Assembly: GCF_029227855.1 (NCBI RefSeq)
Contig: NZ_CP074356.1
Reading direction: 5' to 3' (one strand)
Length of the DNA stretch: 64,000 nucleotides
From: Escherichia coli
GTDB taxonomy: Bacteria; Pseudomonadota; Gammaproteobacteria; Enterobacterales; Enterobacteriaceae
Shown: positions 2,995 to 7,572 of the stretch, one piece after another
How positions within the stretch are numbered: position 1 is the first letter of the stretch
Layout of the letters: every line of letters starts with the position of its first letter
Program-made: the position numbers and the translations under genes
The notes under the pieces: model-generated
Told to the model about the DNA's origin: nothing
Databases searched by the model: none
Seen by the model: only the letters and a program-made list of their open reading frames with translations

Positions 2995-4290
2995 TTACCT
3001 GTTTTCCCATAATTTCAGCATCGCTTTGTGCTCTTCCTTAAGCACAATCCGCGAGCGTCTGGCTCGAATATAACTAATCGCTTCATCAACGGTTTTACAA
3101 TGTCCGTAACATAACAGCCATGCCCCCACTACCAGCGCACTGCGCGATAATCCCAACGCGCAATGGACCAGAACGCTGCCTTGCTCTTCGCGTAATGTTT
3201 CCAACATCGCCACGGCCTGTCGGAGCTCCCCCTCTTCCGGAACCACCAGATCCAACATCGGTACACAAAAATAGAGTCGATCTTTTGTCGCTCGTCCGCG
3301 AGGGAATTCAAAGGTGACGTCCAGAACCGCATTCTGTGCCGGAATATGTCGTGGAAACGCCCCTAAATAAACACCAGCAGTAATTTTGCTCACCGGCTCC
3401 AGGCGAAGGCAAACCAACGCATAGACAGCCACATCCCGATGCGCCATGGCAATGTCAGCCAGTAAACGGCGGGCGGGAGTTTCCCTTGACTATCTTTACC
3501 TGTTGTTATCGCGCCAAGCCCACCGTACCCACGGCCAATAATGAGTAGCGATAATACTGGCCAACATAACCAGACTGACCACCATAACTGAAGCATTATC
3601 ATTAGCTCCATCAACACGAGCACGCGCCTGCGACATATGGCAGTGCTATTTTGATTCGACGTTGATCAGGTTTCTGATAATTCCAACGACGGTCTACGGG
3701 CACCATCCAGTCAATTAACATACCTACCGCCAGCCCTGTGATGACATCAATAAAATGATGCTGCCAGGTCGTCAGCGTCGAAATGGCGATGAGTAAAAAC
3801 CATCCGCCGCAGACTTTACGCCACCTCACAGCCAGATGCTGACGAAAGTGACGCCAAAGTAGCCAGCAGAGAATAATATGCAGCGAAGGAGACTGGTTAT
3901 AAGGCAGATCAAACAATTCAAGTTGCGAAAATAACCATCCTGTCACCCCACTCACTTCAGGACGGATAAAACTAAACTTCAGCGGGTAGAGAAAAAACCG
4001 CAGCAGGCCATTACCGTTGCCAGAATAAGCCGGTGGACCAGACGGCGCTGCTCAAATGTCGAGCTACAAACGAACAGCGAAAATCCATATAAAAGATCCA
4101 GACTCCAGTAAGGAACAATAGTCCAGGGAAGAAAAGGGATCGCCGTTTCCCAACCGAATACCTGACTGGGGATATCATGGTTGTTAAGATCCTGAGTCGC
4201 GGTGAATTGATTAAGAAATCCATATGTGAAGAAGAAAAACGGGGCCAGCAACAATAACCAGCCAGCTCCTTGTAGTAATACGTTCCGGCG
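2995..4290 (-). pseudogene. ynbD: ynbD-like membrane-anchored dual-specificity phosphatase, reading frame broken by three +1 frameshifts
   Basis: Four consecutive minus-strand ORF pieces (3979-4377, 3611-3955, 3390-3623, 2995-3447) in frames 0/1/2/0; last piece carries the CX5R phosphatase motif [10 protein letters not shown]; first break is at an A6 run (3992-3997) where one extra base fuses pieces 1 and 2. Confidence 0.6.
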
Positions 4291-4291
4291 T

Positions 4292-6049
4292 TCAGTTATC
4301 ACGACGCACCGCCATCGAAACCGTAAAAATGCCCCACTCATCAATCCGTTGTGTGCATTTATCGAATCCGGCATCATGCACGAGCGAATCCATCTCCCCT
4401 TGAGAACGCACGCGCATTACCCACGGTTTACCATCTTTATGACTGGTTAACACCCCGGCAATCAGCTCCAGTTGTGGGTGCCACGGCTGCCCGGTGTAGA
4501 TGAGAATGCCACCCGGTTCGATGGCATTCGCCAGACCTGCGAGTGAGTTTTTCACCGGCTCATTTTCGGGAAAAAGCTCATACAGACCAGACACAATCGC
4601 CAGCGTAGGCCGCGGAGTTAACGCGCTGAGTTCCTCCGGGTTAAACGCATCGCCCTGTTCAAAACGCGCCCGACCAGACATTCCCCGTTGGGCAATCATC
4701 TCTTGCCCTTGTGCAACATTTACCTCACTGTAATCACGTAATAAAATATCGCTTACGGCAGGCTCGTTTACCAGCGCATCCAGTACATAGCGCCCATGCC
4801 CTGCGGCAATGTCAACCACGCGGACGGCTAAACCTTTGGCGTGGAGATCGGCAACGGCTTGTTTAATCAGCATGTGTAAATGGGTTTTGCGCTGGCGAAT
4901 ACCGCGCCAGCCAACACTGTTCAGGTAGATTTTGTCGATAAAGCGACCGAATGCATTACTGCCTTGCGGTTGATTTTGATAGACATAATCCAGCGAACTG
5001 CCTGAATCAAAGCCGGTGCTCATTCCGAGATGCAGGCCCGCAGAGTGCGCCCCGAACAGTTTCATCGCCTTTCGCATAAAGCGATACGCCAAATCAACCG
5101 GCGATAACGGCACGGGTCCACCAGAAAGGAGCCGCCATCGATCCGCTGATGGTCCTGTGCGGTCTTCATGCTGATAATCAAATTTTTGCGACTTGTTAGC
5201 ATATAAACGGCTGATAAAGCTTTGCATTTTTTCAAATGCCTGCGCCCTGTTCTCTTCACCCAACGTGTCGTGATAAAAGCCTGGCAGCAGATGCAGCTCT
5301 TTCAGAGGACTACGTAAACGCTGATAAAAATCAATCTGCGGTTGGCGATGCACCACATAGTCATCGCCTGATATCAGAAGTTGCGTGGGGAGCGTAATCG
5401 CCGCCGCATCGCTAACAATACGTTCAGACGTTTTATAGAGATCGAGCAAGATATTGACGGCAATCGCCCGTGTGATCAGCGGATCATTATTGAAACTCGC
5501 CACCCGTTGCCGATCGTGGGTCAGATAACTCCCTTTCACATAGGAATTAATAAAAAACAGACCACGCAGACGATGCCATAACGCCAGCCCAGGACGTGCC
5601 AGCGGCACATACAATTTAACCTTAAAGGCCGGAGATGCCAGCACCAGTCCGCGAATAGCAGGCGCATAATCATGAACCCATGTGGCAACCAGCACTGCGC
5701 CGACGCTTTGCGCGATCACAACCACCTCTTCCAGTCCAACCTGGCTGTCGCTGGCAGCAAAACGGACAAATTCATCGACATCCTGCACTGAACGCGCAAG
5801 AGATGGGCTATAACCACGCGGCCCTGACGTTTTTCCATGCCCTCGGGCATCCCAGGCATAAAAAGCAGTATCTGGCATCGCCAGTTCATCAACGAGATGT
5901 TGTAGACGCCCGGAATGTTCATGACCGCGATGAAATAAGACTATGACCTTTTTCGCCCCTGGCTGTAAAGTGGGCCAGTGCCGATAAAACAACGCTGTAT
6001 TATCACTGGTGGTAAAAAAATGTTCCCCAGGGATGCGTGAATTTTCCAT
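4292..6049 (-). CDS. ynbC: Bifunctional alpha/beta-hydrolase / SAM-dependent methyltransferase-like protein
   Basis: 585-aa ORF; N-terminal hydrolase region with HRGHEHSGR and C-terminal methyltransferase-like region ([11 protein letters not shown]); position between ynbB and ynbD. Confidence 0.85.
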
Positions 6050-6064
6050 TTTCTCTATTTTCCT

Positions 6065-6961
6065 TCAGTAACAGCAGTAGCGAATAAAATAAAAAAATAC
6101 CGGAGCGGTGAAAATTAATGAGTCAATCCTGTCAAGGAGTCCGCCATGTCCTGGTAATAGTTTTCCACTATCTTTAACACCAATATCTCGTTTGATGGCT
6201 GACATCACTACATCGCCGCAAAAACCACTAATACCAATTAACAAACCCGCTAATAATGCCTGTAATGTATCTAGCGGTGTCAGCAACGGTCCAATAATCA
6301 GTGACGCAATCATGGTGGTGATTACGCCGCCCATCAGACCTTCCAATGTTTTTCCCGGGCTGACTTTAGGGACCACTTTTCTTCTGCCGCAGGATTTTCC
6401 CCATAAATACTGTGCAATATCGTTTGACTCGGTTAATGCCAAAAGAAATAACACCAGTAACGCCCCGCCCTGGATATTTGTGGTTGGCAACATTAATAAC
6501 CAGGCGGCATGACTCAAGGCGAAAACGGTCATTATCCAGCCACAAAAAATGGCGCTCACGGTATGCAGAAAACCGGAGGGGTCACCCACTAAAACTCGCC
6601 AGGTGGCTAATATCAGAAACCCAGCCAAAGGTATAAATAACAGAAACAGCTCAAAGCAATTAAAACCGATAAGCAAATAGTTAAGAGGAATACCCCAATA
6701 TAACCAACGCGGAAAATGTACAGATATAAGCGTACAATATTCTTTCAATGCCAGAAAACTTATCAGCGCAAAAAACGTCAACGTCATCCAGCGTGGACCT
6801 GAAATCACCATTGAAAAACAAATGACGATGCCCCACCAAGTACGAATACGTAATGTAACTTCATCCCCTTTTCTCTCCGGTAACCGCCATACCAGAAAAC
6901 GGTTTATCAGCGTTGCTAAAATTAACAACGCGAAAAGTGTTGCCAGAGATTTTTCCAGCAT
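6065..6961 (-). CDS. ynbB: CDP-diglyceride synthetase (CdsA)-family integral membrane protein
   Basis: 298-aa polytopic membrane ORF; start ATG overlaps ynbA stop (ATGA). Confidence 0.85.
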   Translation of the reverse strand: MLEKSLATLFALLILATLINRFLVWRLPERKGDEVTLRIRTWWGIVICFSMVISGPRWMTLTFFALISFLALKEYCTLISVHFPRWLYWGIPLNYLLIGFNCFELFLLFIPLAGFLILATWRVLVGDPSGFLHTVSAIFCGWIMTVFALSHAAWLLMLPTTNIQGGALLVLFLLALTESNDIAQYLWGKSCGRRKVVPKVSPGKTLEGLMGGVITTMIASLIIGPLLTPLDTLQALLAGLLIGISGFCGDVVMSAIKRDIGVKDSGKLLPGHGGLLDRIDSLIFTAPVFFYFIRYCCY

Positions 6962-7572
6962 TATCTTTCAGCGCTCATAAGAAGCACACTCCGACAACGA
7001 TTAATCGCAGTCCAGAGAAGCAGAATTGAAGCAATGCTCCATAAAAGATTATTCCATTGCATCCATTGTGGATAAATGGCAATGGCCAGACCCCACAGAC
7101 CAAATATTAACGCGCGATCGCTTTTGCCAAATGGACCGACATAACTACGAATACCGTTAATCGTCTGCGCGAGTAAACCGCAAAACTCGGTCAATATGGT
7201 GCAAAATAACATGATTATCACGAGTGATGCGTTACTTTCCGGTAAAAATAAAAACGGTAAATAGAGCGCAATATCGGAAATAACATCGCCAGTCTCATTC
7301 AAAATCGCCCCAAGACGTGTTTGCTGATTGCACTCACGCGCCAACATGCCATCCAGCGCATTGAGTGCCATACGAATAAAAAGCACAATGGGCAATAGCA
7401 AAAAGAGGATGGGTTGTGCCACCAACATCAACAGCAATCCGCTAAGAAGAGAAAGTGCCAGTGCAGCAAGAGTGATGTGATTCGCTGTAACATGGTGCTT
7501 ATTAAGCCAAAACATCGTCGGCCTTAACAGCGACTGAAAGAGCGGTTTTATCTGGTAGAGCGTCATTATCAA
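6961..7572 (-). CDS. ynbA: CDP-alcohol phosphatidyltransferase-family membrane protein
   Basis: 203-aa hydrophobic ORF, first gene of the ynbABCD operon. Confidence 0.85.
   Translation of the reverse strand: MIMTLYQIKPLFQSLLRPTMFWLNKHHVTANHITLAALALSLLSGLLLMLVAQPILFLLLPIVLFIRMALNALDGMLARECNQQTRLGAILNETGDVISDIALYLPFLFLPESNASLVIIMLFCTILTEFCGLLAQTINGIRSYVGPFGKSDRALIFGLWGLAIAIYPQWMQWNNLLWSIASILLLWTAINRCRSVLLMSAER

Follow-up and report, generated by a model that had tools for sequence, protein, structure and literature searches.

The ynbABCD operon of Escherichia coli raises the question of what its four neighbouring genes jointly produce, and what becomes of that product in a strain whose ynbD gene is broken. 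We addressed this question for a 64,000-nucleotide stretch of E. coli contig NZ_CP074356.1 (hereafter the window), which is 100% identical to the chromosome of E. coli JNEC-KY178 (NZ_AP045174.1); all other complete E. coli genomes were at most 97.6% identical to the window across positions 2900-7700. On balance, we consider it probable that the ynb module is a self-contained, conditionally expressed pathway that uses CDP-diacylglycerol (CDP-DAG) to make a minor glycerolipid derivative, and that this pathway is blocked in the window strain by the loss of YnbD. The four genes of the operon are as follows.

6961..7566, minus strand: ynbA, intact, 201 amino acids (aa), CDP-alcohol phosphatidyltransferase family (open reading frame (ORF), PGAP coding sequence and Pfam).
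6065..6961, minus strand: ynbB, intact, 298 aa, a CdsA paralogue of the CDP-diacylglycerol synthase family (Pfam).
4292..6049, minus strand: ynbC, intact, 585 aa, fusion of an alpha/beta hydrolase (residues ~32-266) and a class I S-adenosylmethionine (SAM) methyltransferase (275-582) (Pfam).
2995..4302, minus strand: ynbD pseudogene, once coding for a membrane domain of PAP2_3 type followed by a C-terminal dual-specificity phosphatase (DSP) domain, labelled 'frameshifted' by PGAP (alignment to intact alleles).

A preliminary description, made from the letters of this DNA, had proposed four co-oriented genes, overlapping or abutting, and both the ORFs and the junctions bear this out, with the genes lying head to tail on the minus strand from 7566 to 2995. 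The ynbA and ynbB genes overlap by 1 nt (TAATG), ynbB and ynbC are separated by a 15-nt gap with an AGGA Shine-Dalgarno sequence, and, with GTG 4302 as the ynbD start, ynbC and ynbD would share 11 nt; these junctions fit a translationally coupled operon. The gene block delimited there as 2995-7572 was likewise confirmed, except that 7572 marks an in-frame TTG two codons upstream and ynbA begins at 7566. The families it assigned to all four proteins were upheld by Pfam domain searches; no protein of the operon attained the cut-off of an NCBIfam equivalog model.

In the scheme that we favour, YnbB, whose activity is published, would first provide a dedicated CDP-DAG pool. YnbA, which resembles phosphatidylinositol-phosphate (PIP) synthases, would then move the phosphatidyl group to a probably phosphorylated acceptor, and YnbD may work on the YnbA product at either face of the membrane: the Cys-based phosphatase domain in the cytoplasm would remove a phosphate, and the periplasm-facing PAP2 domain would hydrolyse or transfer the phospho-head group. 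The lipase-like hydrolase and the SAM methyltransferase of YnbC would finally remodel and methylate the product. In the window strain, where YnbD is dead and ynbA, ynbB and ynbC are intact, the product would be lost or its synthesis halted at an intermediate.

The grouping of these genes across species provides the first line of support. Homologues of YnbC comprised 406 representatives at the 50%-identity level (E <1e-30), and when one genome per species was scanned, YnbC turned up in at least 589 proteobacterial species. Synteny was counted in the best 80 YnbC loci of that scan, which span Enterobacterales, Pseudomonas, Burkholderiales, Rhodocyclales and Bradyrhizobium. YnbA, YnbD and YnbB were adjacent to and co-oriented with YnbC in 78, 77 and 64 of the 80 loci, respectively, and two further genes also adjoined it: a PlsC/Aas-like lysolipid acyltransferase (63/80) and a small two-helix membrane protein (60/80) of 133 or 164 aa, with the motif W/YxxxRxxxDxxxF and no match in Pfam or NCBIfam. 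The gene order was A-B-acyltransferase-C-D-small protein in Citrobacter, Hafnia and Snodgrassella, A-C-D-small protein-acyltransferase-B in Pseudomonas, Burkholderiales, Rhodocyclales and Bradyrhizobium, and A-C-D alone in Providencia, Proteus, Morganella and Xenorhabdus. In E. coli the order is A-B-C-D, the acyltransferase and the small membrane protein being absent, and tblastn found no match to either gene elsewhere in the window. Fusions of YnbA with YnbC were present in three unrelated metagenomic proteins, and in one distant cluster such a YnbA-YnbC fusion was accompanied by YnbB, a PAP2_3 protein, a patatin and a short-chain dehydrogenase.

From these neighbour frequencies, gene orders and fusions, the core of the module is judged to be YnbA-YnbC-YnbD, and the E. 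coli operon a pared-down version of a cluster that comprises six genes in most of the proteobacteria in which it occurs. YnbB and the acyltransferase would be helpers for which housekeeping CdsA and PlsC can presumably stand in. The 80-locus synteny and the recurrent YnbA-YnbC fusions together lend strong support to the proposal that the four genes serve a single lipid or head-group pathway. A search with PADLOC for a role in anti-phage defence returned no match. The cluster of Vibrio fluvialis (locus L007, 6000-6650) adjoins a resolvase gene, and its ynbB is truncated (132 aa); the YnbC encoded there shares ~77% protein identity with that of E. coli, which suggests horizontal transfer among Enterobacterales, Vibrio and Snodgrassella.

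YnbB is the member with published biochemistry. It matched PF01148 over its full length (E 6e-69, residues 37-295), and the motif SxxKRDxGxKDxGxxxPGHGGxLDRxDS was kept in 64 homologues and in the window. Like CdsA, it has the C-terminal catalytic motif of this family and makes CDP-DAG in vitro (PMC6362211, PMC7018664). Its N-terminal half, in contrast to that motif, is unrelated to CdsA; against the NCBIfam CdsA equivalog NF008635 it scored 111 bits versus a cut-off of 385, with only residues 161-291 aligned, and it does not substitute for CdsA in bulk phospholipid synthesis (PMC6362211). YnbB is thus a CdsA paralogue rather than an orthologue, in agreement with the literature. The published work assigns it to the synthesis of GlcNAc-PP-DAG, the precursor of the glycolipid MPIase (PMC6362211, PMC7018664). 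The earlier statement that no product is established is therefore outdated for YnbB, while it holds for the operon, for which no lipid product has been observed. As a separate observation, residue W140 of YnbB, invariant in 64 homologues and Trp in K-12, is Cys in the window strain and in strain MS 16-3; a common E. coli ynbB allele is thus changed at an invariant position.

The MPIase work gives rise to a different explanation, namely that ynbB, if not the entire operon, serves as a back-up MPIase route in which YnbB would form CDP-DAG and join it to N-acetylglucosamine (GlcNAc)-1-phosphate, yielding GlcNAc-PP-DAG with assistance from the neighbouring gene products. In that case, losing ynbD would be of small consequence, as most of the work falls to CdsA. 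This explanation draws on the findings that overproduced YnbB raises MPIase (PMC6362211), that YnbB restores MPIase but not bulk phospholipid upon CdsA depletion, and that ynbB is cold-induced (PMC6362211, PMC7018664, PMC11413397). We nevertheless regard it as unlikely. A ynbB knockout alone is silent and leaves the MPIase level unchanged (PMC6362211), the evidence comes entirely from one research group, and our literature search gave no paper tying ynbA, ynbC or ynbD to MPIase. Across species, moreover, ynbB is the dispensable member, as the genera with A-C-D only illustrate, and none of its conserved partners (lipase-methyltransferase, phosphatase/PAP2 protein and lysolipid acyltransferase) is an enzyme that builds glycans. 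The cluster is also patchy, being absent from ~12% of E. coli genomes, yet MPIase is reported to be essential.

In the favoured pathway, the phosphatidyl transfer would be the step of YnbA, which matched PF01066 (E 1.6e-9, residues 27-175). Its motif reads N69xxD72GxxARx8Gx3N90x3D94x3D98 and departs from the canonical four-Asp signature D1xxD2GxxAR...GxxxD3xxxD4 in that D1 and D3 are Asn. This Asn/Asn variant was at least 95% conserved among 78 homologues, and it is therefore a trait of a distinct subfamily and not the mark of a decayed enzyme. The closest solved structure was the PIP synthase of Mycobacterium tuberculosis (6h53, E 1.4e-7), and the YnbA scores lay below the NCBIfam cut-offs for NF040950 (76.7 versus 180 bits) and NF045883 (47.9 versus 170 bits). 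A literature search returned nothing on the function of ynbA or on the ynb operon as a whole.

Two known routes are comparable at this step. In mycobacteria, Bacteroides and archaea, CDP-DAG or CDP-archaeol reacts with inositol-1-phosphate to give PIP, which a phosphatase converts to phosphatidylinositol. The ynb cluster resembles this route in that the best matches of YnbA were PIP and archaetidylinositol-phosphate synthases and that a phosphatase and a CDP-DAG synthase are encoded next to it, an arrangement with the same synthase-then-phosphatase logic. It differs in that YnbA falls far under the curated cut-offs and has Asn at two of the four catalytic Asp positions, that the cluster comes with no linked inositol-phosphate synthase, and that a lipase-methyltransferase fusion and an acyltransferase are additionally present. 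The phosphatidylglycerol route, which runs through PgsA and then PgpA/B/C in bacteria or the dual-specificity-type PTPMT1 in mitochondria, differs as well: YnbA scored 29.3 bits against the PgsA model TIGR00560 (cut-off 109.1), and YnbD overexpression did not rescue a pgpA pgpB pgpC mutant (PMC7413402).

For YnbD, domain searches used the intact allele of MS 16-3. The C-terminal part matched DSPc (E 6e-26, residues 306-429), was nearest to dual-specificity phosphatases among solved structures, and contains both the P-loop HCx5R(S/T) of Cys-based phosphatases and the general-acid Asp, as expected of a DSP; D346, C376, R382 and S383 were invariant or nearly so in 48 sequences. A specific kinship of this domain with the lipid phosphatase PTPMT1 was considered and rejected, as it was equally near to PTPMT1 and to protein dual-specificity phosphatases and could not be told apart from the latter. 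The membrane part gave weak Pfam matches (PAP2_3, E 2.5e-4, residues 74-189; PAP2, E 8e-3), and its PAP2 residues H134, H174, H175 and D178 were invariant or nearly so in the same 48 sequences. Compared with the canonical PAP2 motifs (C1 Kx6RP, C2 PSGH and C3 SRx5Hx3D), motifs C2 (PSLH) and C3 (S..TT.QHHxxD) are invariant or nearly so and C1 is shortened to (K/R)FxFxRP. The preliminary description had called YnbD a membrane-anchored phosphatase; with these conserved catalytic residues, the membrane part is probably more than an anchor. The literature counts YnbD as a putative membrane PAP2 protein, the fourth of its kind in E. coli.

The predicted model of YnbD was closest to sphingomyelin synthase-related protein (SMSr) and Aur1, ahead of the hydrolases LpxE (11.4) and PgpB (11.1). 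SMSr and Aur1, representing sphingomyelin synthase and inositol-phosphorylceramide (IPC) synthase, are PAP2-type phospho-head-group transferases, and YnbD shares with them the match to PAP2_3, which we take to be the Aur1 family, and the PSLH and HHxxD motifs. On the other hand, the identity is only 11-12%, and YnbD differs from the eukaryotic proteins by its fused cytoplasmic DSP domain. Ceramide synthesis is not known from E. coli, and any acceptor of YnbD as a putative transferase would therefore differ from those of SMSr and Aur1. Judging from the helix order and the positive loops 146-151 and 192-206, the PAP2 triad probably faces the periplasm and the phosphatase domain is probably cytoplasmic. 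The placing of ynbD as the 'last step' had followed from gene order alone, and the reactions may run in another order. A separate match was obtained with NCBIfam NF009025 (PRK12361), a 546-residue 'hypothetical protein' model whose N-terminal 232 positions match YnbD 208-427 (the last two helices plus the DSP domain), which hints at another architecture that reuses a membrane-tethered phosphatase unit.

YnbC combined a hydrolase (PF12146, E 4.8e-68) with a methyltransferase (PF12147, E 5e-151). The hydrolase domain was nearest to monoacylglycerol lipases among solved structures (family profile, E 6e-34), and its triad S114, D229 and H260 showed at least 95% conservation across 80 homologues and is retained in the window; the nucleophile elbow reads AQSVG, not GxSxG. 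The SAM motif I, DIAAGHGRY, was at least 95% conserved to invariant in the same homologues and is also present in the window. A profile of the methyltransferase domain gave only generic class I matches among solved structures (E at least 0.1) and no specific relative, and a literature search on PF12147 and on the combined ynb domains gave nothing useful. Transposon insertion in ynbC led to polyphosphate accumulation in one strain background, an effect not seen in the Keio background (PMC2435150). Two further observations concern this gene. Some E. coli assemblies encode a second, Citrobacter-like type of YnbC (P0039 and P0063), 76-77% identical to the resident protein, and these strains may hold the full six-gene cluster. 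In addition, an 889-aa E. coli protein (P0001) with PF01148, hydrolase and methyltransferase domains looks like a YnbB-YnbC read-through fusion.

Several points weigh against the proposed pathway. As said, no lipid product has been observed for ynbABCD; ORF clustering within 7 kb on either side in the 80 loci returned the six cluster genes and antisense shadow ORFs, and no conserved gene for supplying a head group. The sole published role, that of YnbB, is in MPIase synthesis, with a ynbB knockout lacking a phenotype on its own (PMC6362211). With two of the four canonical Asp residues missing, YnbA may also catalyse a chemistry unlike textbook phosphatidyl transfer. The topology of YnbD and the order of the steps rest on a model and the positive-inside rule, and YnbD overexpression complemented neither phosphatidylglycerophosphate-phosphatase nor C55-PP-phosphatase deficiency (PMC7413402). 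Finally, two of the six genes are missing from E. coli and ~12% of its genomes lack the region, so that the E. coli version may be only partly functional.

A bolder form of the proposal, possible but doubtful in our estimation, is that the module yields a lipid class new to Proteobacteria, through a dedicated CDP-DAG synthase, an Asn-variant transferase, a two-sided YnbD whose periplasmic half would be a head-group transferase akin to sphingomyelin and IPC synthases, and then deacylation, reacylation and methylation. If so, bacteria would have an equivalent of the phospho-head-group transfer of eukaryotes, and JNEC-KY178 (no YnbD) and a porcine lineage (PAP2 domain only) would be natural mutants that separate the two activities of YnbD.

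The state of ynbD in the window was defined by alignment to the intact K-12 and MS 16-3 alleles, relative to which it carries three deletions (-1, -7 and -1), listed below in the order of the gene.

3990..3994 (~3992), minus strand: deletion 1, one G lost (CGGTTTTTTGCTC to CGGTTTTTTCTC) at about codon 104-105, only in this genome.
3616..3620 (~3618), minus strand: deletion 2, 7 nt (GTGCATT) lost within a transmembrane helix, about residues 221-224, only in this genome.
3412..3416 (~3414), minus strand: deletion 3, one T of a T-run lost (TGGTTTTG to TGGTTTG) at about residue 300-301.

Deletion 1 leads to a stop five codons downstream, before every PAP2 motif, and deletion 3 lies at the border between the membrane and phosphatase domains. 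The gene now consists of four ORF pieces (4377-3979, 3955-3611, 3623-3390 and 3447-2995). An 81-nt probe spanning the T deletion matched perfectly in 20 of 5,426 complete E. coli genomes, namely JNEC-KY178 and 19 isolates that are nearly all porcine, including ETEC-named and O139:H1 strains, from Denmark, Japan and other sources. Two of these genomes were inspected (CFSAN018748 and EC556); both have a 1,292-nt ynbD annotated as frameshifted, which differs from the window ynbD by only 5 single-nucleotide polymorphisms and lacks deletions 1 and 2. Across positions 3380-4020, only one genome reached at least 99% identity.

The T deletion, read from these alleles, is the oldest lesion and removed the phosphatase domain, and the other two came later and destroyed the PAP2 domain as well, a stepwise pseudogene decay of the ordinary kind. 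The preliminary description was right that the phosphatase step is disabled, since ynbD is truly inactivated; the lesions, however, are three rather than one, and the oldest is shared by a whole lineage. PGAP had already labelled ynbD of JNEC-KY178 'frameshifted', and the locus and its frameshift are therefore already known. The change of the K-12 ynbD start codon from TTG to TTA was considered as a fourth lesion and rejected: homologues start ~8 codons upstream, with the N-terminus MTTRRAVILQG of the Vibrio homologue in register with E. coli GTG 4302 and the Snodgrassella start likewise upstream, and the change is therefore probably a silent Leu codon. The K-12 ynbD start (TTG, 430 aa; locus L002, 7388-7403; window 4270-4302) is probably annotated eight codons too short.

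It might be argued that the frameshifts are sequencing or assembly errors, or that ynbD still yields several functional pieces, each expressed on its own. Of the three lesions, two are indeed single-base losses in or near homopolymers, as is typical of long-read error, and the deletions sum to -9, a multiple of three, so that the C-terminal phosphatase ORF returns to its native frame; this 150-aa ORF (3447-2995) holds the whole DSP domain including HCALGLSRS. We consider both possibilities highly improbable. The T deletion recurs in 19 other independently sequenced genomes, from various laboratories and countries, and is therefore an inherited lesion; the 7-nt deletion is unlike homopolymer error, and ynbD is the only frameshifted gene within 50 kb of the JNEC-KY178 assembly. 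On these grounds, an artefact was excluded. As for separate pieces, a stop follows within five codons of the first lesion, ATG 3447 has no preceding Shine-Dalgarno-like sequence, a sum divisible by three is expected by chance in one case out of three, and nothing points to expression of the 150-aa ORF.

Whether the operon still matters to E. coli can be judged from its variation. The ynb region was matched in 4,785 of 5,426 complete genomes, of which 4,275 (~79% of all) had at least 80% of the region; it was absent from 641 (~12%), and ~510 further genomes were only partial, e.g., H23 and H24 with ynbB or ynbC deleted. Five matches to the region were on plasmids. Among intact E. coli alleles, the ratio of nonsynonymous to synonymous substitution rates (dN/dS) was 0.16-0.27 for all four ynb genes and 0.03-0.07 for azoR, which indicates purifying, somewhat relaxed selection.

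These data bear on a further explanation, in which the E. coli operon is an eroding remnant without present function, silent in the laboratory, and the ynbD frameshift one more neutral step. Consistent with erosion, the six-gene cluster has here lost its acyltransferase and its small membrane protein, absent and partial regions are common, the whole porcine lineage carries a ynbD frameshift, dN/dS is several-fold above that of the neighbouring azoR, and growth is unaffected when ynbB or ynbD is knocked out (PMC6362211, PMC7413402). However, dN/dS of the above range still reflects purifying selection on all four genes, the catalytic motifs are all intact in K-12, MS 16-3 and the window ynbA, ynbB and ynbC, most complete genomes keep a near-whole operon, and a dedicated activator-dependent promoter exists (PMC3950696). 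We thus give the remnant explanation only a small chance and continue to favour a functional pathway blocked at YnbD. In the window, ynbA, ynbB and ynbC retain all family-conserved catalytic residues; an accelerated decay of these genes after the loss of ynbD was considered and not seen, as the strain-unique substitutions avoid conserved positions.

The surroundings of the operon are the same as in K-12, with hrpA and azoR on one side and ydbD and pdxI on the other. Two noncoding features lie at its ends.

2950..2990, no strand assigned: strong hairpin between the convergent ynbD and azoR stop codons (RNA fold -25.3 kcal/mol, z = -4.9).
7567..7734, minus strand: ynbA upstream region (ydbD-ynbA intergenic), near-identical to K-12 by alignment.

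The stability of the hairpin was reached by none of 200 shuffles, and it is probably a bidirectional terminator; lacking a T-run, it escaped the consensus terminator scan. Promoter and terminator scans of the window gave counts no better than chance, and a simple sigma-70 scan of the ynbA upstream region found nothing exceeding chance. In K-12, a BglJ-RcsB-activated promoter has been mapped in this region (PMC3950696). The G+C content is 40-44% in ynbB, ynbA and ydbD and 50-52% in ynbC and ynbD (noted for window positions 6000-10250), so that the operon has two parts, the promoter-proximal half being AT-rich. Farther away, an IS200C transposase gene (11232-11690, minus strand) lies between pdxI and paaY, with a match to the Hfq-binding RNA STnc490 of Rfam (11700-11823; 146 bits, E 1.4e-30) directly upstream of it; in K-12, ydbA pseudogene fragments occupy this position.

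The practical message for the window is modest, as ynbD is an ordinary pseudogene already flagged in the annotation, and the biochemical logic of the preliminary description was broadly right but incomplete on YnbB and YnbD. The ynbABCD operon belongs to those 'y-gene' operons of E. coli that are still without a known product although their genes are clearly for lipid enzymes, and its conserved core, YnbA-YnbC-YnbD, excludes YnbB, the sole member studied so far. Because the full module has six genes, the Citrobacter and Pseudomonas versions are better targets for expression than the trimmed K-12 operon. YnbD itself combines a conserved phosphatase domain with a conserved, putatively catalytic PAP2 domain, the two probably lying on opposite sides of the membrane, and natural alleles remove one or both of them.

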